From the IMG/VR virus record IMGVR_UViG_2660238642_000001: a stretch of 33,492 nucleotides of DNA. One strand, 5' to 3'. How positions within the stretch are numbered: position 1 is the stretch's first letter; each line of letters starts with the position of its first letter. Shown piece by piece: positions 3,355 through 28,081 of this stretch. The notes under the pieces are model-generated. The model was given only the letters and a program-made list of their open reading frames with translations. It made no database searches and was not told the DNA's origin. Source of the stretch: a virus. Taxonomy: Duplodnaviria > Heunggongvirae > Uroviricota > Caudoviricetes. A program made the translations under genes and the position numbers.

Positions 3355-3626
3355 GTATTCGTATTGAAATTGGCGAACGTTATGTCGTTACCAGTGACAG
3401 CTTTCAGTTTATTCTCCACGAGAAAAAGAGAGCGGAAAGCGGTAAAAACGCCGGTCAGGAATGGTTGGCGGTGGTTGGTTATTACCCGAAATTAAGCCAG
3501 CTCGTTTCCGGCCTGATGCATCACGATATTCTGACCGGAAGCGCAAAGTCTTTTGCTGATTTAAACGCGCAGGTTGAGCAACTCAGCAAGCGTTGTTCAG
3601 AGGCTTTGGGCTCATATGGCCGTTAA
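3351..3626 (+). CDS. Hypothetical early protein (P2 orf83 position)
   Basis: 91-aa ORF coupled to its neighbours, overlapping the start of A. Confidence 0.5.
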   Translation: MSIRIEIGERYVVTSDSFQFILHEKKRAESGKNAGQEWLAVVGYYPKLSQLVSGLMHHDILTGSAKSFADLNAQVEQLSKRCSEALGSYGR

Positions 3627-5895
3627 AGCCTCCGGGCGTTTTGTCCCTCCGTCAGCATTTGCCGCAGGCACCGGTAAGACGTTTACCGGTGCTTATGCAT
3701 GGAACGCGCCACGCGAGGCTGTCGGGCGCGAAAGACCCCTTACACGTGACGAGATGCGTCAGGTGCAAGGTGTTTTATCCACGATTAACCGCCTGCCTTA
3801 TTTTTTGCGCTCGCTGTTTACTTCACGCTACGACTACATCCGGCGCACTAAAAGCCCGGTGCACGGGTTTTATTTCCTCACATCCACTTTTCAGCGTCGT
3901 TTATGGCCGCGCATTGAGCGCGTTAATCAGCGCCATGAAATGAACACCGACGCGTCGTTGCTGTTTCTGACAGAGCGTGACCATTATGCGCGTCTGCCGG
4001 GGATGAATGACAAGGAGCTGAAAAAGTTTGCCGCCCGTATTTCATCGCAGCTTTTCATGATGTATGAGGAACTCTGCGATGCATGGGTTGATGCACATGG
4101 CGAAAAAGAATCGCTGTTTACGGATGAGGCGCAGGCGCATCTGTATGGTCATGTTGCTGGCGCTGCACGTGCTTTCAATATTTCCCCGCTCTACTGGAAA
4201 AAATACCGTAAAGGACAGATGACCACGAGGCAGGCATATTCTGCCATTGCCCGTCTGTTTAATGATGAGTGGTGGACTCATCAGCTTAAAGGACAGCGTA
4301 TGCGCTGGCATGAAGCGTTACTGATAGCTGTCGGGGAGGTTAATAAAGACCGCTCACCTTATGCCAGTAAACACGCCATTCGTGATGTGCGTGCACGCCG
4401 CCAGGCAAATCTGGAATTTCTTAAATCGTGTGACCTTGAAAACAGGGAAACCGGCGAGCGCATCGACCTTATCAGTAAGGTGATGGGCAGTATTTCTAAT
4501 CCAGAAATTCGCCGGATGGAGCTGATGAACACCATCGCCGGTATTGAGCGTTACGCCGCCGCAGAGGGTGATGTGGGGATGTTTATCACGCTGACCGCAC
4601 CGTCAAAGTATCACCCGACACGTCAGGTCGGAAAAGGCGAAAGTAAAACCGTTCAGCTTAATCACGGCTGGAACGATGAGGCATTTAATCCAAAGGATGC
4701 GCAGCGTTATCTCTGCCGTATCTGGAGCCTGATGCGCACGGCATTCAAGGATAATGATTTACAGGCCTACGGTTTGCGTGTCGTCGAGCCACACCATGAC
4801 GGAACGCCACACTGGCATATGATGCTTTTTTGTAATCCACGCCAGCGTAACCAGATTATCGAAATCATGCGTCGCTATGCGCTCAAAGAGGATGGCGACG
4901 AAAGAGGTGCCGCGCGAAACCGTTTTCAGGCAAAACATCTTAATCGGGGCGGTGCTGCGGGGTATATCGCGAAATACATCTCAAAAAATATCGACGGCTA
5001 TGCACTGGATGGGCAGCTCGATAACGATACCGGCAGACCGCTGAAAGATACTGCCGCGGCTGTTACCGCATGGGCGTCAACGTGGCGCATTCCGCAATTT
5101 AAAACGGTTGGCCTGCCGACAATGGGGGCTTACCGTGAACTACGCAAATTGCCTCGCGGCGTCAGCATTGCTGATGAGTTTGACGAGCGCGTCGAGGCTG
5201 CACGCGCCGCCGCAGACAGTGGTGATTTTGCGTTGTATATCAGCGCGCAGGGTGGGGCAAATGTCCCGCGCGATTGTCAGACTGTCAGGGTCGCCCGTAG
5301 CCCGTCGGATGACGTTAACGAGTACGAGGAAGAAGTCGAGAGAGTGGTCGGCATTTACGCGCCGCATCTCGGCGCGCGTCATATTCATATCACCAGAACG
5401 ACGGACTGGCGCATTGTACCGAAAGTTCCGGTCGTTGAGCCTTTGACTTTAAAAAGCGGCATCGCCGCGCCTCGGAGTCCTGTCAATAACTGTGGAAAGC
5501 TCACCGGTGGTGATACTTCGTCACCGGCTCCCACGCCTTCTGAACACGCCTCAGCAGTGCTTAATCTGGTTGATGACGGTGTCATCGAATGGAGTGACCC
5601 GGAGGTCGTGAGGGCGCTCAGGGGGGCATTAAAACACGGACTGAGAAGACCAAACCGCCAGCAAAGAAACGGAAGCACGTTAAAACCACATGAAATTGCA
5701 CCATCGGCCAGACTGAGCCGGTCGGAACGATTGCAAATTACCCGTATCCGCGTTGACCTTGCTCAGAACGGTATCAGGCCGCAGCGATGGGAGCTTGAGG
5801 CGCTGGCGCGTGGGGCAACAGTAAATTATGACGGGAAAAAATTCATGTATCCGGTCGCTGACGAATGGCCGGGACTCTCAACATATTATCAATGA
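3616..5895 (+). CDS. A: Rolling-circle replication initiator (endonuclease) A
   Basis: ~760 aa from the ATG at 3616 (MAVKASGRF..., matching the P2 gpA N-terminus as recalled; the track ORF begins earlier at 3574). Contains the HUH motif EPHHDGTPHWHMMLF and paired catalytic tyrosines in GYIAKYISK. Confidence 0.9.
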   Translation: MAVKASGRFVPPSAFAAGTGKTFTGAYAWNAPREAVGRERPLTRDEMRQVQGVLSTINRLPYFLRSLFTSRYDYIRRTKSPVHGFYFLTSTFQRRLWPRIERVNQRHEMNTDASLLFLTERDHYARLPGMNDKELKKFAARISSQLFMMYEELCDAWVDAHGEKESLFTDEAQAHLYGHVAGAARAFNISPLYWKKYRKGQMTTRQAYSAIARLFNDEWWTHQLKGQRMRWHEALLIAVGEVNKDRSPYASKHAIRDVRARRQANLEFLKSCDLENRETGERIDLISKVMGSISNPEIRRMELMNTIAGIERYAAAEGDVGMFITLTAPSKYHPTRQVGKGESKTVQLNHGWNDEAFNPKDAQRYLCRIWSLMRTAFKDNDLQAYGLRVVEPHHDGTPHWHMMLFCNPRQRNQIIEIMRRYALKEDGDERGAARNRFQAKHLNRGGAAGYIAKYISKNIDGYALDGQLDNDTGRPLKDTAAAVTAWASTWRIPQFKTVGLPTMGAYRELRKLPRGVSIADEFDERVEAARAAADSGDFALYISAQGGANVPRDCQTVRVARSPSDDVNEYEEEVERVVGIYAPHLGARHIHITRTTDWRIVPKVPVVEPLTLKSGIAAPRSPVNNCGKLTGGDTSSPAPTPSEHASAVLNLVDDGVIEWSDPEVVRALRGALKHGLRRPNRQQRNGSTLKPHEIAPSARLSRSERLQITRIRVDLAQNGIRPQRWELEALARGATVNYDGKKFMYPVADEWPGLSTYYQ

Positions 5896-6308
5896 TGATT
5901 GACATGAATATACTACTGAGATTAATCAGATCATCGATTGATTCCAAGATTATAGTATGGAATGGGAACCGTAAACCGCTCTGAGAGTTGTATGCATATA
6001 TGCCTGAGGGCAAAGCTTAACGTGGTTATTTTGACCAACGTCAGCTACCTAAGAGTTATGGCTGGTCTTATGCTTCTGCATTCCCACAAGCATGTGATGT
6101 GTGGGAAAATGGAGCAGGGAAATCTAAGTTAAGTTGGATTCTAATGTAATTAAGATGCCTAAGTTTGCTTATCTTTCGCTGTGACGTGGAACTTTGTTAT
6201 GATACTGCATGCATAAACAGTTGTTTTCTGCTGTTTAAATTACCAGTGAGCACTTTTGCTTGCTAAGTATAGAATGTAGTCATTTTAAACATGTTGCAAG
6301 GTAGTATC

Positions 6309-7451
6309 ATGGCTGAAGAAGCAGGGCGCTTAACATTTTTTGATGTAACGAAAGCTGGTTTTTACAATCTTAAGGATGAAGTTCAAAAAAGCACGGATAT
6401 TGTAAATATATTAGACTCCCTGTCCAACTGGGTTTGTTCTCGTTCTTTTGAAGAAACCCTACCATTGGTTGATGACTCTAGACTGCGGAAAAAGGTTTAT
6501 TGTCGAGGTGTGCATAAAGATGAAAAGACAGGCGATTATTTTTTTGTGCTTTGGAAATCAGAACTTGATGGCAATGGTAATCTTCAGGGGGTTGCGCCAG
6601 ATTCACAGGTAAATTCATCATCTAGTGACGTTAAGATGCTTTCGGATGATATGACTGATGGGGTTAAATATATTTGGGGTAAGCCATGTTATTACTGGTA
6701 CATCCCTGAGTTCAATAAATTTGCTGCAATTCGTTTCCCTCACTCAAACTCAGACACTTATCTTTTTAGTCGCTATATTAGAGATTATGCTAATTTCAGA
6801 ATGCCATATCCCGGGCGTAAAATTGCAGAAGTATGCAGACCAAATCCAGGTGGGAAAGACATAAAGTTTAGTGTTGTTACATTTGAAAGTGATGACGGAA
6901 GTTCACGAGTAAGATTTTTATTTGAAGCGCAGCAGTATATGAAAAAAGCTGGGCGTATAAATATAAAGAAGATTCGTGACTCTATAACACATATTGTAAT
7001 AAGAGATACAATTGGAGCTAAAGTTCCAGATAAAAGAGCTTGGTGGGTAAAGGCTTTTGATAAATTTCCTGTATTACGTGATGAAGTACCTAAGACTCAT
7101 AAAGAACGACAGATAGAGTTAATTATTGAAGAAAGACCAACTGAAAAGCAAATTGACGAACTTTTCGATTTTTATGAAGAGGATTATGCTTTCGGCTCTT
7201 CTTGGAACAATATCGGCTTCAAACAGGATGGTAAGAATGGGCAGACTAAGTGGTTAGATGAATATGTTATGCGTGATTATTTGAATGCTACTTATACTGT
7301 AAATGATAACGCACATATCTCGGCTGAGAAATTGGCAGAGTTAATTAATGATAAACGAAAAGAACTCGTAAGTGGTCTCGATGGTTATGAGATTGATAAA
7401 ACTCAAGTTATACCTTCGGGAAATAACAATGAGGTCGCTATAGGAGGATGA
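6309..7451 (+). CDS. Hypothetical soluble protein, first gene of the island-1 two-gene operon (candidate defence protein)
   Basis: ~380-aa ORF in a clearly AT-rich island. The ATG at 6309 is preceded by AAGG; the track start is 6291. No Walker, RT, or nuclease motifs recognised. An Rx4H string (RDSITH) is present but not diagnostic. The stop is 1 nt from the start of the next gene. Confidence 0.6.
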   Translation: MAEEAGRLTFFDVTKAGFYNLKDEVQKSTDIVNILDSLSNWVCSRSFEETLPLVDDSRLRKKVYCRGVHKDEKTGDYFFVLWKSELDGNGNLQGVAPDSQVNSSSSDVKMLSDDMTDGVKYIWGKPCYYWYIPEFNKFAAIRFPHSNSDTYLFSRYIRDYANFRMPYPGRKIAEVCRPNPGGKDIKFSVVTFESDDGSSRVRFLFEAQQYMKKAGRINIKKIRDSITHIVIRDTIGAKVPDKRAWWVKAFDKFPVLRDEVPKTHKERQIELIIEERPTEKQIDELFDFYEEDYAFGSSWNNIGFKQDGKNGQTKWLDEYVMRDYLNATYTVNDNAHISAEKLAELINDKRKELVSGLDGYEIDKTQVIPSGNNNEVAIGG

Positions 7452-7452
7452 T

Positions 7453-7959
7453 GTGATAATAAAGATCCTTATTGGGATTCTCATGGCCTTCGTTCTGCTT
7501 GTTGGCGGTTTTAGCATTTCAGAAAGCGTCAAATATTCATATGTTGTTGATCTTCTTGGTGTTTTGCAAAATACGTCCGCGATGATTTTTGCAATTGCTG
7601 GTATTTGGCTAGCTTATCTCTATCCAAATGCAATCGCTGGTTTGATGAAATCTGAAAAAGTGGATTTTTTAGCAAGCAAAAGTGAAGCGAAGCGCATAGA
7701 AGGTATGATTCTTATTATCATTATGTCCGCTACTGTATTAATTTTTATTATTGCTTTTTACGCATTTAATGCTGTTCTCCGCGGTACGGATTTCTATGCG
7801 AACAATCGTCACCTTATTAAAGGTGTGAGTTGTGTATATATCTTGAGTATATTACTGACTCAACTGTCATGCGTTATTGTTCTTATTTGGAGAAATGTCT
7901 CGTTTATAAATAGGTTGTATACAGTAATAAACGAAAAAGAATTGGAGGAAAAGTTATAG
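7453..7959 (+). CDS. Small 4-TM integral membrane protein, translationally coupled partner
   Basis: GTG start 4 nt after AGGAGG (7443-7448) and 1 nt after the upstream stop. 168 aa with four hydrophobic stretches of ~20 residues (IIKILIGILMAFVLLVGGFSI, AMIFAIAGIWLAYLY, MILIIIMSATVLIFIIAFYAF, VSCVYILSILLTQLSCVIVLIW). Confidence 0.6.
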   Translation: MIIKILIGILMAFVLLVGGFSISESVKYSYVVDLLGVLQNTSAMIFAIAGIWLAYLYPNAIAGLMKSEKVDFLASKSEAKRIEGMILIIIMSATVLIFIIAFYAFNAVLRGTDFYANNRHLIKGVSCVYILSILLTQLSCVIVLIWRNVSFINRLYTVINEKELEEKL

Positions 7960-7991
7960 CGAACGGCATTTAATGCTGTTTTAATGATCTT

Positions 7992-8030
7992 AAGGGGTGT
8001 TTTTAATGCACCCCTTTCATGATTTTTTTT
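7992..8030 (+). terminator. Rho-independent terminator closing the island-1 two-gene operon
   Basis: Perfect 8-bp stem AAGGGGTG / CACCCCTT with a 9-nt loop, followed within 6 nt by a T8 run. Confidence 0.55.
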
Positions 8031-8076
8031 AGTGTTTGTTGTTTTTAATAAGAATTGTGAATTAACAGGAGAGGAT

Positions 8077-8808
8077 GTGATACACATAACAAAGCCAGGA
8101 ATTTTATTTAAGTATCGTAAGTTTGATAAAAACAATCTGAAGCTGTTATTGAATCGTGAGTTATGGTTTGCAAAACCAGATACTCTTAATGATCCTTTTG
8201 AAGCAAATTCTTCATTTTCAAATGTGCTTGATGCTGTTTGGAAACATTATCCACTGCCTCTTGATATGAGAATTAAATATGAGAGATATCTTAAACAGTC
8301 ATTGCAGCAAGTCGGAATTTGTTCCTTTAGTAAAGCGAGGAAAAATCAATTGATGTGGTCACATTATGCCGATGAACATAAAGGTATTTGCATTGGCTTT
8401 AAAGAGGAGTATTTGAAGAAAGCTGGGGTTTCTTTTTTGGAAGCAGATGTGGAATATCAGGATAATTATCCCTTTGATGATATTGTTAAACGTATTCATT
8501 ATTTTGAGGATAATGAATGCCTTAACGGGTTTGATAATATTTGCGGGGATATTTTACTTTCTATTTTAACGACAAAGTACACAAGTTGGAAATATGAAAG
8601 GGAGCGCCGATTGATTGTGGAGAATTTTGGAGCAAGGAAATTTGAACCTTTAGCGGTCAATTCTATAGCTTTTGGGTTAAGAATGAAGGAAAGAGATAAA
8701 AAAACGCTACTGACTCTATTGTCAGGCCCAGAGTGGTCGCATTTGAAATGGTTTCAATCAACGAAATCATCAATTAAATACTCTTTAGATTTCATACGTA
8801 TTAAATAG
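8077..8808 (+). CDS. DUF2971-like protein (unknown function)
   Basis: LWFAKPDTLNDPFE and MWSHYADEHKGICIGF match my recollection of the DUF2971 signature. The track ORF starts at GTG 8032, but a GTG at 8077 preceded by AGGAGAGG and lying downstream of the terminator is the more likely start. Confidence 0.55.
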   Translation: MIHITKPGILFKYRKFDKNNLKLLLNRELWFAKPDTLNDPFEANSSFSNVLDAVWKHYPLPLDMRIKYERYLKQSLQQVGICSFSKARKNQLMWSHYADEHKGICIGFKEEYLKKAGVSFLEADVEYQDNYPFDDIVKRIHYFEDNECLNGFDNICGDILLSILTTKYTSWKYERERRLIVENFGARKFEPLAVNSIAFGLRMKERDKKTLLTLLSGPEWSHLKWFQSTKSSIKYSLDFIRIK

Positions 8809-9211
8809 CTTTCAAATAGTTACGGTGGTTGTCATGTTATCGTCCCTCTTAACTGTCAGATCTGATTGAATACTGGATATGTAACCTATCAGTTGGTGTC
8901 TGAGTTAATACAACTGAAAGTATCAAACTGATGGCTTTTGTTCACAGTCGGCAGCAGATAATGAAGCACGAAAATCTGATGCTTGATGCGTTGGTTGGAG
9001 GGCAATTAGTCCGGGAGAATTACGGGTTGCTTAACGATATCAGTCCATCCAGAATGGCTCCGTCATCACACAGATGATAGAGAACGCCGCTAGCCGTGAA
9101 ACTTGTTTCTAGTGTTAGCGGGGGGGAACAATGAGTGCAGCGATGCGTTAGACTTATTTGTGTATTATGGCTTAATCTCGGATAGAGTTTGTTATCTGGA
9201 GAATAGGTTAT

Positions 9212-9631
9212 ATGGTGACGCTTGATACTGTGTATTGGAAGTTTGGTTATGCATCGGAAGCTGCCCAATTATTGGAGACTGAATTAATAAATGCCCTCAC
9301 TGAGTATGATATGAAGCAAGGGGGGGATATAGCGTCGTTGAAAAAACAGTTTCTAGAAATGGATAAGTACACGCTGGGTAAACTGAATTACGCACTGAAG
9401 TCAAGGATGGTGGGGGATGCTGATACACTGGAGCATGTGTCAGATGCTCTTAAAGCCAGAAACTACTTGGCACATGAGTTTTATCGCAAACATGCTGATG
9501 GTAAATTCACTCCAGAAGGAAGGCAGAGAATGCTTGCTGACTTAAAAAATATACATCAAATAATTTTTGAGGCTTACCGCAAGGTTCTGCAACTAAGTGA
9601 CATTGATATTCCTCCTTTAGAGCATGATTAA
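9212..9631 (+). CDS. Small alpha-helical HEPN-like protein (putative RNase or toxin)
   Basis: 139 aa, charged and helix-prone, with ARNYLAHEFY (R83-x4-H88-x2-Y91) resembling the HEPN Rx4-6H motif. Stand-alone gene at the distal end of the island. Confidence 0.45.
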   Translation: MVTLDTVYWKFGYASEAAQLLETELINALTEYDMKQGGDIASLKKQFLEMDKYTLGKLNYALKSRMVGDADTLEHVSDALKARNYLAHEFYRKHADGKFTPEGRQRMLADLKNIHQIIFEAYRKVLQLSDIDIPPLEHD

Positions 9632-9633
9632 AT

Positions 9634-9673
9634 CTTGCATGCATTAGATGCATTAGATGCATTAGTTTGCATG
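9634..9673. repeat. Tandem 9-bp repeat GCATTAGAT (about 2.8 copies) bracketed by TTGCATGC direct repeats
   Basis: Directly visible: ttGCATGCATTAGATGCATTAGATGCATTAGtttGCATGC immediately after the stop of the HEPN-like gene. Confidence 0.6.
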
Positions 9674-9768
9674 CCTCATTCGTTATTTTCATATTCGAGT
9701 GCCGTCAGTGTCGGCATGGTTTTGACGGATTCATACATCTGCATTAAAACCGCCCCATGAAGCGGGCG

Positions 9769-9787
9769 GGCGAGGCGGGGAAAGCAC
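9769..9787. other. cos site (19-nt cohesive-end sequence of P2)
   Basis: GGCGAGGCGGGGAAAGCAC matches the P2 cohesive end as I recall it. It lies between the accessory island and the portal gene Q, the position expected for a linearly integrated P2-type genome. Confidence 0.65.
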
Positions 9788-9956
9788 TGCGCGCTGGCGG
9801 TGGTGCTGATTTTATTTTTTCAGCGTCTGAGCGCGTCGTGATGGCGTTTAGATTGTGCGCCGGGGCGTTGGTGTGTCTGCGGGGTGTTTTGTGCGGTGGT
9901 GAGCGTGTGAGGGCGTGATGACGGGATGTAAAAAAGCCGCCCGCAGGCGGCGATGT

Positions 9957-10991
9957 TCAGCCGTTGTCAGTGTCCAGTGAGTAGTTTTTAAAGCGGATGA
10001 CCTCCTGACCGAGCCAGCCGTTTATCTCGCGGATCCTGTCCTGTAGCGGGATAAGCTCATTGCGGACAAAGACCTTAGCCACTTTCTCAATATCACCCAG
10101 CGACCCGACGTTCTCCGGCTTGCCGCCCATCAACTGAAAGGGGATGCGGTGCGCGTCCAGCAGGTCAGCGGCGCTGGCTTTTTTGATATTAAAAAAATCG
10201 TCCTTCGTCGCCACTTCACTGAGCGGGATAATTTTAATGCCGTCGGCTTTTCCCTGTGGGGCATAGAGAAACAGGTTTTTAAAGTTGTTGCGGCCTTTCG
10301 ACTTCACCATGTTTTCGCGAAGCATTTCGATATCGTTGCGATCCTGCACGGCATCGGTGACGTACATGATGTATCCGGCATGTGCGCCGTTTTCGTAATA
10401 CTTGCGGCGGAACAGCGTGGCCGACTCATTCAGCCAGGCAGAGTTAAGGCCGCTGAGATATTCCGGCAGGCCGTACAGCTCCTGATTAATATCCGGCTCC
10501 AGCAGATGAAACACGGAGCCGGGCGCGAAAGGTGCCGGCTCGTTGAAGGACGGCACCCACCAGTAAACATCCTCCTCCACGCCACGGCGGGTATATTTTG
10601 CCGGTGAGGTTTCCAGTCTGATGACCTTACCGGTAGTGCTGTAACGCTTTTCCAGAAACGCATTACCGAACACCAGAAAATCCAGCACAAAGCGGCTGAA
10701 ATCCTGCTGGGAAAGCCACGGGTGCGGGATAAACGTTGAAGCCAGAATATTACGTTTGACGTAAATCGGTGAGCTGTGATGCACGGCAGCACGCAGGCTT
10801 TTTGCCAGACCGGTAAAGCTGACCGGGGGTTCATACCATCTGCCGTTACTGATACATTCGACATAATCCAGAATGTCACGGCGGTCGAGTACCGGCACCG
10901 GATCACCAAAGGTGAATGCCTCCATTTTCGGGGCGCTGGCGGTCATTTTTTTTGCCGCAGGTTGCGGTGTTTTCCCTTTTTTCTTGCTCAT
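9957..10991 (-). CDS. Q: Portal (capsid vertex) protein
   Basis: 344 aa, the P2 gpQ length. First gene leftward of cos and followed by the large terminase gene, as in P2. Confidence 0.9.
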   Translation of the reverse strand: MSKKKGKTPQPAAKKMTASAPKMEAFTFGDPVPVLDRRDILDYVECISNGRWYEPPVSFTGLAKSLRAAVHHSSPIYVKRNILASTFIPHPWLSQQDFSRFVLDFLVFGNAFLEKRYSTTGKVIRLETSPAKYTRRGVEEDVYWWVPSFNEPAPFAPGSVFHLLEPDINQELYGLPEYLSGLNSAWLNESATLFRRKYYENGAHAGYIMYVTDAVQDRNDIEMLRENMVKSKGRNNFKNLFLYAPQGKADGIKIIPLSEVATKDDFFNIKKASAADLLDAHRIPFQLMGGKPENVGSLGDIEKVAKVFVRNELIPLQDRIREINGWLGQEVIRFKNYSLDTDNG

Positions 10992-12763
10992 CAGTAAAAC
11001 TCCAGAATGGTGGATGTCAGCGGAGTGCTGATACCGGCGGTGAGTGGCTCATTTAACAGAGCGTGCATGGTCGCCCAGGCGAGGTCGGCGTGGCTGGCTT
11101 CCTCGCTGCGGCTGGCCTCATAGGTGGCGCTGCGTCCGCTGCTGGTCATGGTCTTGCGGATAGCCATAAACGAGCTGGTGATGTCGGTGGCGCTGACGTC
11201 ATATTCCAGACAGCCACGGCGGATGACGTCTTTTGCCTTGAGCACCATTGCGGTTTTCATTTCCGGCGTGTAGCGGATGTCGCGCGCGGCGGGATAGAAC
11301 GAGCGCACGAGCTGGAACACGCCGACACCAAGGCCGGTGGCATCAATACCGATGTATTCGACGTTGTATTTTTCGGTGAGTTTGCGGATGGATTCAGCCT
11401 GGGTGGCAAAGTCCATGCCTTTCCACTGGTGACGCTCAAGTATCCTGAATTTGCCACCGGCCACCACCGGCGGTGCCAGCACCACGCATCCGGCGCTGTC
11501 GCCACGGTGTGACGGGTCGTAACCAATCCATACCGGGCGGGAGCCGAACGGATTTGCGGCAAACGGCGCGTAGTCTTCCCATTCTTCCAGAGTGTCGACC
11601 ATGCAGCGTTGCAGCTCCTCGAACGGGAACACCGACGCCTTGTCGTCAACAAATTCACACATGAACAGGTTTTTAAAATCGTCGGCGCTGTTTTCGCGTT
11701 TGAGCTGCTCAATGTCGAACAGCGTGCAGCCGCCTTTCAGCGCGTCCTCAATGGTGACAATCTGCCGCCACTGGCCGTCCGCACAGAGAAGACCTCCGGC
11801 AAGGGCGTTATGACTGACGTCGATTTCCACGCGTTCGGCGGCGCTGGCGCGTCCCCGGTTGAACAGTTCACCCGACCAGAACGGGTAGGCGTCGTGCGCC
11901 AGCGTGGACGGGGTGGAGAAATAGGTCGAGCGCAGGTGGCTCTGTGAGGCCATACCTGATGCCACCTTACGCAGTACCTGAAAATTCGGGATCCAGAAAA
12001 TCTCGTCGACGTACAGGTCGCCGTTATGGCTCTGCGCGGTGTTGGAGTTGGTGCCGAGAAAAATCAGTTTTGCGCCGTTATTGCCCAGGACAATCGGGTC
12101 ACCGGTCAGGTCAACGTCAACCAGACGGGCAAAGGCGATGATGTATTCGCGGAACACATACGCCTGCGTTTTACTGGCCGACAGAAAAATCTGGTTATGA
12201 CCGGTTTTCAGGGCGCGCAGCAGCGCCTCGCGGGAAAAATAAAACGTTGCGCCAATCTGGCGGGATTTCAGGATATCGCGGATGCGGTGCTCAAGCCCGG
12301 CGCGATACCAGTGCAACTGATAGTCGAAAGACTGCTCAAAGAAAATCTGCTCCAGCTTTTCGATGGCCTCGTCACTGAAAAAATTCTTTTTCGGTTTGCG
12401 CCGCCCGCCTTTGTTGCGGTTAGCGACGTTCGGATTAAGGTCTGCCTCGTTGCCGGTCTGACTGTAACGGTTGACCCGTGCCAGTCGTTCAATCTGACGT
12501 CCCAGCAGGTCAATTTCCTTGAAGTCACCGCCGGTTTTCTGCGGTTTGATGATGAGCTGGGTCAGCCGCGCTTCCAGACTCATTTCGACACGGCTGATGG
12601 GGGCAACGCTGTCCCAGCCGTCGCGCTGTTTCCAGCTCTGCACCGTCGGGCGTTTCATCTGCAACATGGCGGCAATCTGCGGCACGGAAAACCCCTGCCA
12701 GTACAGCAGCGCCGCCTGACGACGCGGGTCGTGTAAAAGAGTGGTGTCTGTGGTGATGGTCAT
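10991..12763 (-). CDS. P: Terminase large subunit (ATPase)
   Basis: 590 aa from the ATG at 12763, which is preceded by GAGGT; the track extends to a TTG at 12793. Same length as P2 gpP and coupled to Q. Confidence 0.9.
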   Translation of the reverse strand: MTITTDTTLLHDPRRQAALLYWQGFSVPQIAAMLQMKRPTVQSWKQRDGWDSVAPISRVEMSLEARLTQLIIKPQKTGGDFKEIDLLGRQIERLARVNRYSQTGNEADLNPNVANRNKGGRRKPKKNFFSDEAIEKLEQIFFEQSFDYQLHWYRAGLEHRIRDILKSRQIGATFYFSREALLRALKTGHNQIFLSASKTQAYVFREYIIAFARLVDVDLTGDPIVLGNNGAKLIFLGTNSNTAQSHNGDLYVDEIFWIPNFQVLRKVASGMASQSHLRSTYFSTPSTLAHDAYPFWSGELFNRGRASAAERVEIDVSHNALAGGLLCADGQWRQIVTIEDALKGGCTLFDIEQLKRENSADDFKNLFMCEFVDDKASVFPFEELQRCMVDTLEEWEDYAPFAANPFGSRPVWIGYDPSHRGDSAGCVVLAPPVVAGGKFRILERHQWKGMDFATQAESIRKLTEKYNVEYIGIDATGLGVGVFQLVRSFYPAARDIRYTPEMKTAMVLKAKDVIRRGCLEYDVSATDITSSFMAIRKTMTSSGRSATYEASRSEEASHADLAWATMHALLNEPLTAGISTPLTSTILEFY

Positions 12764-12793
12764 GAATACCTCGCCGTGATGAATACACGGCAA

Positions 12794-21629: not shown

Positions 21630-24254
21630 ATGAGCACGAAATTTAAAACCGTTATCACTACTGCCGGAGCCGCAAAGCTGGCAGCCGCCACTGTCCCCGG
21701 CGGGAAAAAAGTAAACCTGTCTGCAATGGCCGTGGGTGACGGTAATGGCAAATTGCCGGTGCCGGATGCCGGTCAGACGAAACTGGTGCATGAGGTCTGG
21801 CGTCACGCTCTGAATAAAGTCAGCGTGGATAACAAGAATAAAAACTATATCGTGGCTGAACTGGTTGTACCGCCAGAAGTGGGCGGCTTCTGGATGCGTG
21901 AACTTGGTCTGTATGATGATGCCGGAACACTGATTGCGGTCGCTAACATGGCAGAAAGCTATAAGCCTGAACTGGCTGAAGGCTCCGGGCGTGCGCAGAC
22001 CTGCCGCATGGTCATTATTGTCAGTAACGTGGCGTCTGTTGAGCTGAGTATTGATGCCAGCACAGTGATGGCGACGCAGGATTACGTCGATGACAAAATC
22101 GCAGAGCATGAGCAGTCCCGCCGCCATCCTGACGCCACGCTGACAGAAAAAGGTTTTACTCAGTTAAGCAGTGCAACAAACAGCACCAGTGAAAAGCTGG
22201 CAGCAACGCCAAAGGCAGTAAAAGCAGCCTATGACAATGCTGAGAAACGTCTGCAGAAAGACCAGAACGGTGGCGATATTCCAGATAAGGGCGCTTTTCT
22301 GGACAATATTGGCGTTACCAGCCTGACGTTTATGAAACACAATGGAATGATTCCAACCACTGACAATCTTGATTCCTATGGCCCAGAAGAAAAATATCTT
22401 GGAACGTGGTCATGTCCGTCACAATCCACTGCAAAACCAGAGTCTGGTTACCCTGAAGATAAAGGCAATGGGGTTCTGGAAGTATTCAATGCTGGTCGCT
22501 TTCACTGCACACAACGCTACACCACCCGAACCGGTAATATTTACATTCGGATGCTTGATGCAGAATGGAACCCTGTCAGTCCTGTATGGAGTGCATGGAG
22601 AGCTATTACAAGCGGGACTCGCCCATTAAGCACGTCAATTGACCTGAATTCTTTAGGTGGTGCGGAACACCTGGGAATATGGCGCAATAGCAGTACATCA
22701 ATAGCCTCATTTGACCGTCATTTCCCGGAGGAAGGGAGTTTTGGACAGGGTATTCTGGAAGTCTTTGAAGGCGGTCTGTATGGGAGGATGCAACGTTATA
22801 CCACCCGTAGTGGGACTATGTACATTCGCGGACTGACAGCCTCATGGGATGCAGAAAATCCACAATGGGAGGACTGGATTGCTGTTGGGTATCAGTCCAC
22901 GGGATGGACTTATTCAGGGGATCTTGATGACCTTTTAAAGCCTGGTATTTATAGCGTCACGAAACAGGCCACAAATGCACCTGTCACCGACTCTAAAGAT
23001 CTTGCTGTTGGCTCAATAGTTGAGGTGAAAAAACGTTGTGATATTGAATCGTATATCCAGACATATACGACTGTTTCAGCAACGGATGCCTATAAAAACC
23101 GGACATTTCAGCGAACCCGCGCCAGCGGTGAAACTGACTGGGGGGAATGGGCGGAAGTATACAACTCAAAATCATTACTCACTAAATTAGGTGTCGGCGG
23201 TGTTACCGACAGGTTATCCAGTCTGGACTGGCAGACCTACGACTTTATACCGGGCAGCATGATAACTGTCAGGCTTTCAGATATGACCAATATTCCCGAT
23301 GGGATGGAATGGGGCGTCATTGATACTAACCTGATAAATATCACTGTTGGCCCCAGTGAAGGCGGAGGTGTCGCCCGTTCAATGCAGGTATGGCGCAGCA
23401 CTTCAAACAAAACCAACTATCGTTTTTTTACAGTCCGCTTATATGGCAATCCTGGGGAGCGTAGCTTCAATATTCGTCGGCTACCAATTATCGACGAAGC
23501 CCAGACATGGGAGGCAAAACAGACATTCAGTGCAGGCCTTTCTGGTGAACTGTCCGGCAATGCGGCTACAGCAACAAAGCTGAAAACGGCAAGGACAATT
23601 AACGGCGTAAAATTTGACGGCTCGGCAAATATTGAAGCGTTTCCGCCTGGTGTTCCGCTGCCGTGGCCATCAGATACACCACCTGCAGGCTATGCAATCA
23701 TGCAGGGGCAGACGTTTGATAAGGCAGCATATCCGAAACTGGCTATAGCCTATCCTTCTGGTGTTATTCCTGATATGCGCGGCTGGACAATCAAGGGCAA
23801 ACCCGCCAGTGGGCGTGCCGTATTGTCACAGGAACAGGACGGGATTAAATCGCATACTCACAGTGCCAGTGCGTCAAATACGGATTTGGGAACGAAAACA
23901 ACCAGTTCGTTTGATTACGGGACGAAGACAGTCAGTACGTTTAACTACGGAACAAAAACCACTAATACCACTGGTAACCATACACATACCATTTACAGAG
24001 GGAATGCCAATACTAATGGTGAAACCGGTAAAACAGGCTTTGACAACCCATCGTTTAATGGCACATCAGGAGCTGCCGGGAATCATGCCCACACGGTAGA
24101 TATTGGTGCACATAATCATACGGTTGGTATTGGTGCACATTCACACACGGTTGCTATTGGCTCACACGGGCACTCTATTACCGTTAATGCTACAGGTAAT
24201 ACAGAAAACACCGTCAAAAACATCGCATTTAACTATATTGTGAGGCTTGCATAA
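21630..24254 (+). CDS. H: Tail fibre protein (P2 H-like N-terminus, divergent repeat-containing distal part)
   Basis: 874 aa. The N-terminal ~190 aa resemble P2 gpH as recalled. The middle carries three ~45-aa internal repeats (QRYTTR[TS]G..YIR...W..W). The C-terminus is Gly/Thr/His-rich with HxH repeats ([32 protein letters not shown]). Confidence 0.85.
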
Positions 24255-24832
24255 TGGCTTTCAGAATGAGTGCAGAAGCACAAACTATCCGCGTTTTCAA
24301 TTTACTTGATGGAACCAATGAGTTTATTGGCGAAAGTGATGCATATATTCCGCCGCATACAGGTCTGCCTGCAAACAGTACAGATATTGCACCACCTGAT
24401 ATTCCTGCTGGTTATGCAGCCGTTTTCAATGCAGATGAAATGAAATGGGAGTTGATGGAAGATCATCGCGGAAAGACTGTCTACGAAACGAAAACGGGAG
24501 CAGCCATTTATATTTCTGAACTTGGTGCATTACCTCCAGACGTGACAGCCATTTCCCCGGATGGGGATTATCAGAAATGGAACGGAAATGCGTGGGTGAA
24601 TGATGAGAATGCAGAGCATGATGCACTTGTCAGAGCGGCGGAGTCTCAGAAGAAAGAGCAGATTGCATATGCCGGTGAAATTATTGGCACTCTGCAGGAT
24701 GCTGTCGATTTAGATATGGCTACCGAGGAAGAAAAGTTAAGCCTGACACACTGGAAAAAATACCGTGTGCTACTGAATCGCGTTCAGCCGGAAAATGCTC
24801 CGGATATAGAATGGCCAGAAATGCCGCAATAA
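24254..24832 (+). CDS. G: Tail fibre assembly chaperone
   Basis: 192 aa immediately after H with a coupled start. Confidence 0.75.
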
Positions 24833-24902
24833 ATCGTATTAGCTCTGGTATGAGATTACTCATCTATGGCACAGAGTAAAACCTAATCAGGCTGTCCGTT
24901 CC

Positions 24903-24918
24903 GTGCCAGGAGCGGACG
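24903..24918. repeat. Copy 1 of a direct repeat GTGCCAGGAGCGGACG (within a ~27-bp imperfect repeat that forms a hairpin)
   Basis: Exact 16-mer seen again at 25827-25842. The surrounding sequence GTCCGTTccgtgccagGAGCGGAC can fold as a stem-loop. Lies just downstream of G. Confidence 0.6.
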
Positions 24919-25229
24919 TTGTAAAGTTTATTTGGAGAATAATGGTTAGAAGAACTATGTAGATCATAGCCCTCTAAAGTCAGTAGTCTTACACCATATA
25001 AATGGTCATTTAGAGATAGTACACCACCTACAAAAAACGAGATAAAGCGTGCAAGCGGCATGAAGATACATAAAATACTCCATTCTGCACTTGATGTTAG
25101 GATGAATACTGACACTCGCTTTGTAAAGATAAAGATGATCTTGAGGATGATTAGTTTATTAATTATCTCCAATGTTTGTTATTTTGTGATGATAAAGATT
25201 CTCTGGATTAATAGGATGGTAATTCAATT

Positions 25230-25257
25230 AAAAGAGACCTTATAGAAGGCCTCTTTT
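25230..25257. terminator. Hairpin with A-run and T-run flanks (candidate bidirectional terminator for the reverse-strand 3-TM gene)
   Basis: AAAAGAGACC ttatagaa GGCCTCTTTT: 9 of 10 complementary positions, about 55 bp beyond the 3' end of the minus-strand ORF. Confidence 0.45.
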
Positions 25258-25312
25258 AAGTTATGAGAGCTGATTTTATATTCAATAGAGTATTCTCATC
25301 GAAGAAATAACC

Positions 25313-25660
25313 TCATAAAATGTAAAGACAGCCAGCAAAAAAAATACAGATAAAGATAAGGGAAATAGCACACTTAACTAAGGACTGAATCCCCCGAGGT
25401 GTTCCCCATGGTTTAGACATTTGGGTTATAACCCAAATAAATAGGGCCATAAAACAGCAAACACCAGCCAATCCGAGCAGAGATATTATGACAACTCCAA
25501 ACAGATTTCCAACATCTAGTTTATCTGTTTTTGCAACTAGGGTTAACAAACCAGCAATAATAGTTGCTATCGATATTCCCGCAATGGTTGTGAGATCAGC
25601 GATAACAGCCAGTTTTTCTTTAGTATTTCCTTGAGTAAAAACCTCTAAAATTGATTTCAT
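25313..25660 (-). CDS. Small 3-TM membrane protein (island-2 cargo, unknown function)
   Basis: 115 aa. ATG preceded on the minus strand by AGGTGG. Three hydrophobic segments of ~22-26 residues. AT-rich, reverse orientation relative to the late operons. Confidence 0.55.
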   Translation of the reverse strand: MKSILEVFTQGNTKEKLAVIADLTTIAGISIATIIAGLLTLVAKTDKLDVGNLFGVVIISLLGLAGVCCFMALFIWVITQMSKPWGTPRGIQSLVKCAISLIFICIFFAGCLYIL

Positions 25661-25826
25661 GGAAAATAACCACCTACTATCGATTATATTCAGGAACTTT
25701 TTATCATAACAATATCAGATAGATAAGGATATTGTAATATTTTGGATGATTTAAACTTACTTTTGTAACTCTAATGTCCACTTTTCGCTCACAGCGGACC
25801 TTTAGCTCAGTTACCTCGTCCGCTTT

Positions 25827-25842
25827 GTGCCAGGAGCGGACG
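25827..25842. repeat. Copy 2 of the direct repeat GTGCCAGGAGCGGACG with overlapping alternative hairpins
   Basis: GCGGAC..GTCCGC and CGTCCGCT..AGCGGACG are mutually exclusive stems in gcggacctttagctcagttacctcgtccgctttgtgccaggagcggacg. Lies between the divergent island-2 genes. Confidence 0.6.
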
Positions 25843-26102
25843 CTAACCTGATTGACGGGAAATCATATTAAGTCGGCATAAAAAATTAGAATATCTTTAG
25901 TGATTATTACTAATGTGTGTGTATAACTTATGCCTAATTTATCGCTCCGGCTGAGGGAATCTTGCCTCCGCTGTCACTTTTAGGTATGTTAACAACTATT
26001 TTTACAGTGGTTCCGAGTTATGCTATCTAACAGATTACTTGAACCGAGTCCGTTTATCAGTATGGCGTTTTATATGCTCAGAGTCCATCCAAGGAGTGAC
26101 TT

Positions 26103-26579
26103 TTGAAATTTGAACAAATCTATAAAAATATTACTGGCCTTAGCTGTCCCATATTCGGGATTCAGTGGAATGCTCCAATAATAGAAACTGACGAAGCGAA
26201 GAAGATCGTCATTTTTCTTGAGGACAAGCGCGTTCTTTTCAATCCTGTCGACATGGAGGGTGCTAGTCATTGCACTTCGAGTGTTATCAACATTAGATCT
26301 GAATTGACTAAAGTCCTACAAGGTTTGCCGAGCGATTCACATTTAGCAAAACAATTAAGGAAAATGAGAAAAGCATGCCAAGAATTCTGTGACAGCGTTG
26401 GCTCCCCTCACTTTATCCAACTTGATCATCCTGTTCAAATATCCATACTTGAGCGAGCCCTTTTTAAACTGCGACAAAAGTGTGGTAACTCTCTGGCAGA
26501 AATAGCGGTTACCTATGGTCTTGATGTTGATGACGGATTGGCCAGTATTATCCCTTTTAATAATCCCAGTAACATATAG
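26103..26579 (+). CDS. Hypothetical protein (island-2 cargo, unknown function)
   Basis: 158-aa ORF (track coordinates), AT-rich, non-canonical start, divergent from the 3-TM gene and followed by a strong terminator. No recognisable motifs. Confidence 0.5.
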   Translation: MKFEQIYKNITGLSCPIFGIQWNAPIIETDEAKKIVIFLEDKRVLFNPVDMEGASHCTSSVINIRSELTKVLQGLPSDSHLAKQLRKMRKACQEFCDSVGSPHFIQLDHPVQISILERALFKLRQKCGNSLAEIAVTYGLDVDDGLASIIPFNNPSNI

Positions 26580-26766
26580 CAATGACTATGAATTTGCTTG
26601 CTGGATTAATTATCATGCAACCGACAGTTTTGGGTCGGAAGCGGTTAGCAAATTAGTCATTAGTGAGTCGTTATGTCCGTTCATCGCTCAAAGCAGACTG
26701 TCAGATTTAATAGCGTTTTGATTATGTAACTTGTCAGTTGGAAGCTGAGTGAGAACAAATCAAGGC

Positions 26767-26795
26767 AGGCGGGCTGATTGCCCGCCTTTTCTTTA
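26767..26795 (+). terminator. Rho-independent terminator separating island 2 from the FI late operon
   Basis: Perfect 8-bp stem AGGCGGGC / GCCCGCCT with loop TGATT, followed by TTTCTTTATTT. Confidence 0.65.
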
Positions 26796-26890
26796 TTTGT
26801 TGTTTCATCCACTGGCCAGCCAGGTCAAATAGCGTCTCATGCTCTGCACAACAGAAAATAGTTGCACCCATTAACCACGGAGTTAAACGG

Positions 26891-28081
26891 ATGAGTGACT
26901 ATCATCACGGCGTGCAGGTGCTGGAGATTAACGACGGCACCCGCGTCATTTCCACCGTATCCACGGCCATTGTCGGCATGGTCTGCACGGCCAGCGATGC
27001 GGATGCGGAAACCTTCCCCCTCAATAAACCGGTGCTGATAACCAATGTGCAGAGCGCAATTGCAAAGGCCGGTAAAAAAGGCACGCTGGCGGCATCGTTG
27101 CAGGCCATCGCCGACCAGTCAAAACCGGTCACCGTTGTCGTGCGTGTGGAAGACGGCACCGGCGACGACGAAGAAACGAAACTTGCGCAGACCATTTCCA
27201 ATATCATCGGCACCACCGACGAAAACGGTCAGTACACCGGACTGAAAGCCCTGCTGGCGGCGGAGTCGGTAACCGGTGTTAAACCGCGTATTCTTGGTGT
27301 GCCGGGACTGGACACCAAAGAGGTTGCCGTCGCACTGGCATCAGTCTGTCAGAAGCTGCGCGCTTTCGGGTATATCAGCGCATGGGGCTGTAAGACCATT
27401 TCCGAGGTGAAAGCCTACCGCCAGAATTTCAGCCAGCGTGAGCTGATGGTCATCTGGCCGGATTTCCTCGCATGGGATACGGTCGCCAGTACCACCGCCA
27501 CCGCGTATGCCACCGCTCGTGCACTGGGCCTGCGTGCTAAAATCGACCAGGAGCAGGGCTGGCATAAAACGCTGTCCAACGTCGGGGTAAGCGGTGTTAC
27601 CGGCATCAGCGCCTCTGTATTCTGGGATTTGCAGGAGTCCGGTACCGATGCTGACCTGCTTAACGAGTCAGGCGTCACAACGCTGATTCGCCGTGACGGT
27701 TTCCGCTTCTGGGGTAACCGTACCTGCTCTGATGACCCGCTGTTCCTCTTTGAAAACTACACCCGCACCGCGCAGGTGCTTGCCGACACGATGGCTGAGG
27801 CGCACATGTGGGCGGTGGACAAGCCCATCACCGCAACGCTGATTCGCGACATCGTTGACGGCATCAATGCCAAATTCCGTGAGCTGAAAACAAACGGCTA
27901 TATCGTGGATGCGACCTGCTGGTTCAGCGAAGAATCCAACGATGCGGAAACCCTCAAGGCCGGAAAACTGTATATCGACTACGACTATACACCGGTGCCT
28001 CCTCTTGAAAACCTGACCCTGCGCCAGCGTATTACCGATAAATACCTGGCAAATCTGGTCACCTCGGTTAACAGCAATTAA
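26891..28081 (+). CDS. FI: Contractile tail sheath protein
   Basis: 396 aa, the P2 gpFI length, followed by the tube gene. Confidence 0.9.
   Translation: MSDYHHGVQVLEINDGTRVISTVSTAIVGMVCTASDADAETFPLNKPVLITNVQSAIAKAGKKGTLAASLQAIADQSKPVTVVVRVEDGTGDDEETKLAQTISNIIGTTDENGQYTGLKALLAAESVTGVKPRILGVPGLDTKEVAVALASVCQKLRAFGYISAWGCKTISEVKAYRQNFSQRELMVIWPDFLAWDTVASTTATAYATARALGLRAKIDQEQGWHKTLSNVGVSGVTGISASVFWDLQESGTDADLLNESGVTTLIRRDGFRFWGNRTCSDDPLFLFENYTRTAQVLADTMAEAHMWAVDKPITATLIRDIVDGINAKFRELKTNGYIVDATCWFSEESNDAETLKAGKLYIDYDYTPVPPLENLTLRQRITDKYLANLVTSVNSN

Follow-up and report, generated by a model that had tools for sequence, protein, structure and literature searches.

The AT-rich island at positions 5896–9768 of a 33,492-nucleotide (nt) P2-like prophage sequence (IMG/VR record IMGVR_UViG_2660238642_000001, the whole of which is called the window) is likely to be a mosaic of three independently mobile modules in the hotspot formed by replication gene A, cos and portal gene Q, each of which would most probably protect the lysogen by abortive infection. 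Module 1 (6123–8030) holds the rexAB-like gene pair orfA and orfB, module 2 (8077–8808) the DUF2971 gene orfC, and module 3 (8908–9654) a small open reading frame (ORF) together with orfD (Table 1). The functions of these genes are predicted, not demonstrated.

In the initial annotation, the segment had been judged by eye to be markedly AT-rich relative to the backbone, to lack the P2 genes tin, old and orf91, and to extend from the stop codon of gene A to just before cos. Exact calculation gave a GC content of 37.3% for 5896–9768, versus 52.5% for the remaining window. Among all 3873-bp intervals, taken in 50-bp steps, the one with the lowest GC content started at 5851 and coincided with the island. 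A 500-bp sliding GC profile agreed, with values of 0.50–0.58 in gene A, 0.32–0.39 over 6001–9000 and 0.49–0.60 past 9500; GC content was 0.533 for gene A and 0.56 for the Q–P region. The left-flanking ORF (3574–5895) matched Phage_GPA (E 1e-123) and was 97% identical to P2 A over 756 amino acids (aa), while the right flank consisted of cos, the portal gene Q (9957–10991) and then the terminase gene P (10991–12793), the two genes lying on the minus strand. Searches with P2 Old, Tin and Orf91 (tblastn) yielded no match in the whole window better than E 0.88. The GC contrast, the gene A and cos flanks, and the absence of old, tin and orf91 therefore confirmed the AT-rich island.

Nucleotide homology to P2 stopped at 5883 and restarted at 9740; homology to other P2-like sequences stopped at 5908. 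The last ~30–115 bp of 5896–9768 are backbone rather than cargo. To the eye, sequence from ~9655 onward looks like the DNA beside cos in P4 clones (Rousset et al., 2022, Table S2). Of the two stretches first annotated as non-coding, 5896–6290 (GC 0.38) indeed held no credible ORF, its sole ORF being one of 56 aa (5962–6132); the other, 8809–9211, contains a conserved 48-aa ORF. No Rfam match was found at E ≤ 1 across 5700–10100. A perfect tandem repeat of three 9-bp units (ATGCATTAG) occupies 9639–9665, immediately after the orfD stop codon; flanked by TTGCATGC...GCATGC, it sits where the conserved DNA around cos adjoins.

The slot occupied by the island is the variable segment between gene A and portal gene Q, beside cos, of P2-like prophages. 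The published analysis of this gpA–gpQ antiviral hotspot covered 18,150 loci of E. coli (Rousset et al., 2022, PMC9122126), and the island is an instance of it that shows no difference from the published definition. The original view of the island as exchangeable, horizontally acquired cargo in the tin/old slot of P2 therefore agrees with a published anti-phage hotspot. A re-examination of the hotspot in 2026 described rapid swapping and defences common to other mobile elements, in agreement with the distribution of the blocks of this island. With P2 old, tin and orf91, the island shares the slot and the presumed role (lysogenic-conversion phage exclusion); it shows no homology to these genes, and all of its genes lie on the plus strand, whereas P2 carries old and tin on the minus strand. 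The exact four-protein arrangement (WP_001576644, WP_125093550, WP_001576647 and WP_001576649) is present in Table S5A of Rousset et al. (2022, PMC9122126), and Table S5B of that study gives the orfA/orfB pair as P2 system #48, with 82 occurrences, and the DUF2971 gene with ~60. The arrangement had thus already been catalogued, but its genes, listed there with neither function nor phenotype, are uncharacterized; of the refutation put forward in the initial annotation, an island already described and with characterized genes, one half therefore applies. Among 5426 complete E. coli genomes, 18 contained identical copies of the island; several of these strains are clinical isolates from humans, one of them O25:H4. 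In E. coli CD306, the island is part of a P2-like prophage adjoining pflA.

Comparison with other genomes indicated that the cargo moves in separate blocks. A block spanning ~6123–8823 is common to three contexts: an IS1-flanked islet in E. coli NH-21 (86% nt identity), Klebsiella lambdoid prophages, in which it stands right after a lambda-P-like replication gene (79%), and Brenneria corticis. A second block, 8908–9654, is common to Salmonella phage PSP3 (76%), and sequence from 9135 onward to other E. coli P2-like elements, in which the 139-aa gene comes after an HNH-motif protein. Blocks of the island thus recur in lambdoid and other siphovirus-type prophages and in an IS1-flanked islet. Within the first block, linkage of the DUF2971 gene to the orfA/orfB pair was confined to the closest clade (E. 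coli, Klebsiella and Brenneria); elsewhere, each occurred alone. Since the two occur apart elsewhere and their counts in the hotspot differ (82 versus ~60), they are treated here as co-mobilized neighbours rather than as one system. The gap between orfB and orfC carries a GC-rich hairpin that resembles an intrinsic terminator, and in NH-21, Klebsiella and Brenneria this gap is likewise occupied by GC-rich hairpins, which differ in sequence and are followed by a U-run in the first two, so that the structure is terminator-like in three of the four versions. The conserved position of this hairpin argues that the rexAB-like operon and orfC are two transcription units. The different distributions and the hairpin therefore indicate independent modules, with the orfA/orfB pair, orfC and the gp37/gp38-like unit each forming one. 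The cargo had at first been described as four unrelated ORFs, a description that does not fit orfA and orfB, which form a conserved and probably translationally coupled operon, nor the grouping of the genes into three modules. A PADLOC check, proposed at the same time, matched three of the four ORFs.

Two of the shared contexts showed further features. In NH-21 (locus L002, 4233–11507), an IS1 copy stands on either side of the three-gene block, which adjoins truncated tyrosine recombinase and truncated oxidoreductase genes; such an arrangement points to a composite bounded by IS1 or to an island that has degraded. In Klebsiella lambdoid prophages L050 and L053 (12750–15143), an apparent further defence cluster, encoding a DNA methylase, a HEPN_MAE_28990/RiboL-PSP protein and a GmrSD_N protein, was found a few kb downstream of the block.

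Table 1. Positions and predicted roles of features in the island and at its right boundary.
Feature	Position	Strand	Remarks
Junction spacer, gene A stop to mobile block	5896..6122	.	AT-rich; no credible ORF
Upstream region travelling with the block, presumed promoter and 5' untranslated region of the rexA-like operon	6123..6308	+	Inferred; co-conserved with the genes
orfA, rexA-like, 380 aa (PADLOC PDC-M18A)	6309..7451	+	Predicted cytoplasmic DNA-binding sensor, RexA/RdgC fold
orfB, rexB-like, 168 aa from GTG 7453 (PADLOC PDC-M18B)	7453..7959	+	Four hydrophobic segments; predicted membrane effector
Intrinsic-terminator-like hairpin and U-run	7992..8016	+	9-pair stem, then TCATGATTTTTTTT; GC-rich; between orfB and orfC
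orfC, DUF2971, 243 aa (PADLOC PDC-S31)	8077..8808	+	Predicted ADP-ribosyltransferase-like single-gene module
Small ORF, 48 aa, PSP3 gp37-like	8931..9077	+	Short gene or N-terminally truncated relic
orfD, 139 aa, all-helical, PSP3 gp38 homologue	9212..9631	+	RNxLxH motif; putative minimal HEPN-like RNase
19-nt P2 cos sequence GGCGAGGCGGGGAAAGCAC	9769..9787	+	Single exact match in the window, 0 expected by chance; right boundary landmark, backbone not cargo

The two genes of module 1 are closely spaced. The likely start of orfA, which agrees with RefSeq, is an ATG preceded at 6 nt by AAGGTAG. For orfB, RefSeq (WP_125093550, 158 aa) places the start at ATG 7483, which would cut the first hydrophobic segment. 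A GTG at 7453, 1 nt past the orfA stop codon and with AGGAGG ahead of it, would restore this segment; many distant orfB homologues align from residue 1 of the longer form, and Klebsiella gene calls are also 168 aa long. The AGGAGG, the 1-nt spacing, the complete first hydrophobic segment and the N-termini of the homologues therefore favour GTG 7453, and the RefSeq start is probably too short. Sequence upstream of orfA is conserved together with the genes, from 6123 in E. coli NH-21, from 6192 in Brenneria and from 6200 in the Klebsiella lambdoid prophages. Between the window and NH-21, orfA showed 86% nt and 93% aa identity; the higher identity at the protein level indicates selection on orfA.

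Neither Pfam nor NCBIfam contained a match for orfA or orfB. PADLOC models, by contrast, covered both proteins, PDC-M18A matching residues 7–361 of orfA (E 1e-40) and PDC-M18B residues 1–145 of orfB (E 1e-19). A scan of one genome per species yielded 40 loci with an orfA relative, distributed over Gamma- and Betaproteobacteria, Planctomycetota and Gordonia; an orfB relative was situated directly downstream in 35 of them, the other five being fragments or cut by contig ends. Closer homologues of module 1 were prophage morons in Yersinia, Xenorhabdus, Proteus and Klebsiella, and eight deposited phage genomes carry a homologue, annotated as hypothetical. A perfect 16-nt inverted repeat was observed between the orfA leader (6251–6266) and the orfB coding region (7669–7684), with ~0.002–0.01 such repeats expected by chance in 4.2 kb. 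Long-range RNA pairing through this repeat was considered and dropped: the NH-21 copy contains two wobbles and one mismatch, the complementarity is mostly lost in Brenneria, and no compensation was seen. The repeat is probably fortuitous or recent.

An AlphaFold2 model of orfA, built on the 40 homologues, reached a predicted local distance difference test (pLDDT) score of 79 and a predicted template modelling score of 0.73, and as modelled the protein has the RexA/RdgC fold. The lambda rexAB pair offers a further parallel in its adjacent, co-oriented gene for a small protein with four transmembrane (TM) segments, an arrangement also found for orfB: its hydrophobic segments are centred at residues ~14, 48, 96 and 134, and those of lambda RexB at ~16, 55, 97 and 124. 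The likeness of orfA and orfB to lambda RexA and RexB thus lies in the fold model and in segment spacing, not in detectable sequence. RexA (279 aa) is also shorter than orfA (380 aa), and lambda rexAB stands beside the repressor gene, whereas orfA and orfB follow gene A, ~4.5 kb from the repressor gene, and have homologues at varied moron sites. A validated, distant RexAB-type pair is RexABpp of a Pseudomonas putida prophage, in which RexApp binds DNA and its overexpression leads to RexBpp-dependent growth arrest and membrane permeabilization (PMC12894663). When a family link between RexBpp and orfB was sought through seven published mutated residues, the match was no better than that of shuffled sequences.

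Among published candidates, the P4-borne pFR81, "RexA + 4TM" (Rousset et al., 2022), showed 36% identity to orfA and 28% to orfB (the latter with E 2e-21). According to the Domainator paper, PADLOC PDC-M18 corresponds to P4 hotspot system #4. The PDC-M18 and PDC-S31 hidden Markov models match the window proteins directly and represent candidate systems only; compared with pFR81, the window pair is a diverged, P2-borne subfamily. The validated "Hydrolase + 3TM" system of Rousset et al. was rejected as a counterpart of module 1, its first protein being a HAD hydrolase of unrelated sequence. The fold model adds support at the level of structure for the RexA label on the PADLOC candidate family PDC-M18 as a RexAB analogue.

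Several results weigh against these assignments. A Foldseek search of the PDB with the orfA model gave no match, and a PDB sequence-profile search with the orfA family returned nothing meaningful. Direct alignment with hhalign gave no signal: the probability was 0.2 when the orfA family was compared with lambda RexA, and 0.5 when a 37-sequence orfB profile was compared with lambda RexB. Neither Pfam RexA (PF15969) nor RexB (PF15968) matched any of the window proteins, the 40 orfA homologues or the pFR81 proteins. pFR81 itself is confined to Table S2B, which gives additional tested systems, and is absent from the validated set (Rousset et al., 2022, PMC9122126), and no member of the exact module 1 family has a confirmed phenotype. 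In a 2021 preprint, Rousset and co-workers wrote of moderate protection from P1vir conferred by a "distant analog of RexAB" that they did not specify; this result was not retained later. The island yielded no strong sigma-70 consensus or convincing promoter and, for module 2, a PDB profile search with the orfC family gave no match.

Assignment of orfC to DUF2971 was supported by Pfam PF11185 (43.4 bits versus a cutoff of 22) and by PDC-S31 (E 5e-47); NCBIfam contained no model for it, nor for any other protein of the island. The GTG at 8077 gives the protein the same 243-aa form as most homologues. In 26 homologues with identities down to 35%, the residues R14 (in FKYR), Y97 (in NQLMWSHYADEH) and E174/E176 (in WxYExExR) were invariant. 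Guided by a survey of the family (PMC12522546), we read these residues as motif I, the motif II tyrosine and the motif III ExE of an ADP-ribosyltransferase (ART). That survey places DUF2971 among the ADP-ribosyltransferases near DarT and reports a strictly conserved motif II tyrosine, and the family has been described as having an ART fold and as DarT-like (PMC11381338, PMC12522546). On this reading, orfC shares ART-like R, Y and ExE residues with DarT-type DNA ADP-ribosyltransferases; it has no DarG-like antitoxin with it. Aristaios, a DUF2971 protein encoded on a lactococcal plasmid, has been validated as an antiphage system of a single gene, and its structural model is ART-like (PMC11381338); orfC shares its Pfam family and single-gene organization, but the proteins differ in length (316 versus 243 aa) and come from unrelated organisms.

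Module 3 corresponds to the gp37–gp38 module of Salmonella phage PSP3, a homologous pair of ORFs at the same cos-proximal place, in which gp38 is itself uncharacterized. Nucleotide homology to PSP3 over 8912–9654 covers both genes. The small ORF showed 53% aa identity (E 1e-15) to WP_000554771, a 68-aa hypothetical protein that is common in P2-like hotspots, and the DNA at 8908–9151 matched 385 further E. coli genomes at 60–80% identity, the matches listed being mostly at 74–77%. Compared with the longer forms, the ORF lacks ~20 residues at its N-terminus; since a stop codon closes the upstream frame, it represents a short version of the gene or else a relic of truncation.

The second protein of module 3, orfD, had no match in Pfam, PADLOC or NCBIfam. 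A profile search nevertheless assigned 1894 representatives to its family at E ≤ 0.001 (~1,900 clusters at 50% identity). The motif R83-N84-x-L86-x-H88 was present in 25 of 25 close homologues, and across 68 distant ones its residues still showed at least 90% conservation. An Rx4-6H motif with a polar residue after the arginine is reportedly the hallmark of HEPN RNases. The AlphaFold2 model of orfD (pLDDT 93) consists of five helices (4–35, 40–50, 55–64, 70–93 and 101–127). With HEPN RNases such as HepT and the AF0298/TTHA0636 type, orfD shares an Rx4H motif with N after R and a helical bundle of ~140 aa; it differs from HepT-type systems in having no neighbouring MNT-type antitoxin. The family gave scattered weak matches to six HEPN-type Pfam families and no significant match to a HEPN Pfam model or structure, and a PDB sequence-profile search returned nothing meaningful. 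In the metagenomic protein P0235 (279 aa), an orfD-like domain (1–143) is fused to a HepT-like HEPN RNase domain (169–263; Pfam E 1.5e-5). Equivalence of the orfD family to that HepT-like domain was rejected, hhalign being negative and the Pfam HepT match falling in the separate C-terminal domain. Genes next to orfD relatives encode an HNH protein, DinI, GmrSD, VapC or ArdC, and no partner is conserved. The motif and the modelled fold, together with the weak HEPN-type Pfam matches and the neighbouring genes of defence or mobile elements, suggest that orfD is a HEPN RNase, a plausible but unproven assignment and the least secure among the three modules. We consider it doubtful that the family as a whole represents a large, uncatalogued group of stand-alone minimal HEPN-like nucleases that act as single-gene anti-phage defences and recur in P2/186 hotspots and other mobile elements beside varied defence genes.

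In the mechanism that we propose, each module would guard the lysogen against other phages, most likely via abortive infection. Module 1 would act as a distant RexAB analogue. By analogy with lambda RexA and P. putida RexApp, orfA probably dimerizes on DNA, or on an intermediate of phage replication or recombination, and would then activate the co-translated four-TM protein orfB, upon which the membrane would be permeabilized or depolarized and growth would stop. For module 2, the similarity to DarT and the phenotype of Aristaios suggest that orfC ADP-ribosylates DNA or an essential protein upon infection. Module 3, with its small ORF and five-helix Rx4H protein, would probably supply a HEPN-type RNase, which is the weakest element of the scheme. 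The low GC content would reflect a horizontal origin.

This interpretation was weighed against different uses of the same genes. If orfA, orfB and orfC formed one integrated system, with one sensor and two effectors or with the ART as a second sensor, their movement as one block would be readily understood: they stand together in the P2-like prophage, the NH-21 IS1 islet, the Klebsiella lambdoid prophages and Brenneria, at 79–86% DNA identity in NH-21 and Klebsiella. This integrated system is, however, quite improbable, since the pair occurs without the DUF2971 gene outside the closest clade (in Yersinia, Xenorhabdus and Proteus, at 71, 58 and 49% identity, and at 30+ distant loci), while DUF2971 homologues are widespread without the pair. 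The hairpin that parts orfB from orfC, the unequal counts of Rousset et al. and the separate PADLOC candidates PDC-M18 and PDC-S31 point in the same direction, as does the unequal divergence within the block in Brenneria (88, 73 and 57% at the aa level).

Improbable, too, is a role of the cargo outside phage defence. In such a role, orfA and orfB would act for the prophage itself, for instance in the lysis-lysogeny switch or in membrane physiology, and the product of orfC would serve a pathogenic lineage as an effector of lysogenic conversion or virulence. In lambda, RexA biases the bistable switch without needing RexB (PMC11077077); ~18% of DUF2971 proteins have been predicted to act as effectors in pathogens (PMC12522546), the P4 homologue pFR81 falls outside the validated defence systems, and about one quarter of P2 hotspot loci carry non-defence cargo, for example partition systems and toxins (Rousset et al., 2022, PMC9122126). 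Yet many unrelated prophages, whose regulatory circuits differ, retain orfA and its membrane partner together, as morons within tail and lysis modules; modules 1 and 2 were both captured by the PADLOC defence-association screen; and the validated relatives RexABpp and Aristaios are defence systems. Decaying, silenced foreign DNA that has no current function would account for the low GC content, the two long intergenic gaps, the apparently N-terminally shortened small ORF and the lack of a strong promoter consensus. We hold this to be very improbable, as the four main ORFs are intact and have good Shine-Dalgarno sequences, aa identity exceeds nt identity in diverged copies, motif residues are kept across 26–68 homologues, and pseudogenes are reportedly rare in such hotspots (PMC13586616).

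Under the preferred interpretation of three protective modules, a single P2 hotspot stacks small units that each also circulate elsewhere, in lambdoid and other siphovirus-type prophages, in an IS1-flanked islet and in 186-like phages. Such stacking agrees with published accounts in which defences are exchanged rapidly as modules. The island contains nothing that is categorically new: its genes are of known kinds and their functions are predicted, and the result will not surprise a specialist. What is added here is fold support for the RexA label of PDC-M18, evidence for separate modules, a corrected orfB start and the HEPN-like hypothesis for orfD. The practical value is modest; since identical islands occur in 18 complete E. 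coli genomes, several of them clinical, the cargo could affect susceptibility to phage therapy.

The window contains a second AT-rich segment (24850–26880, GC 0.35–0.41), which occupies the P2 Z/fun slot between a tail-fibre assembly gene (24254–24832) and the tail sheath gene (26891–28081). None of its ORFs matched PADLOC or NCBIfam. Two of them, of 102 and 115 aa and on the minus strand, gave no hits, and a third encodes a 158-aa DUF6650 protein (26103–26579, E 2e-16).

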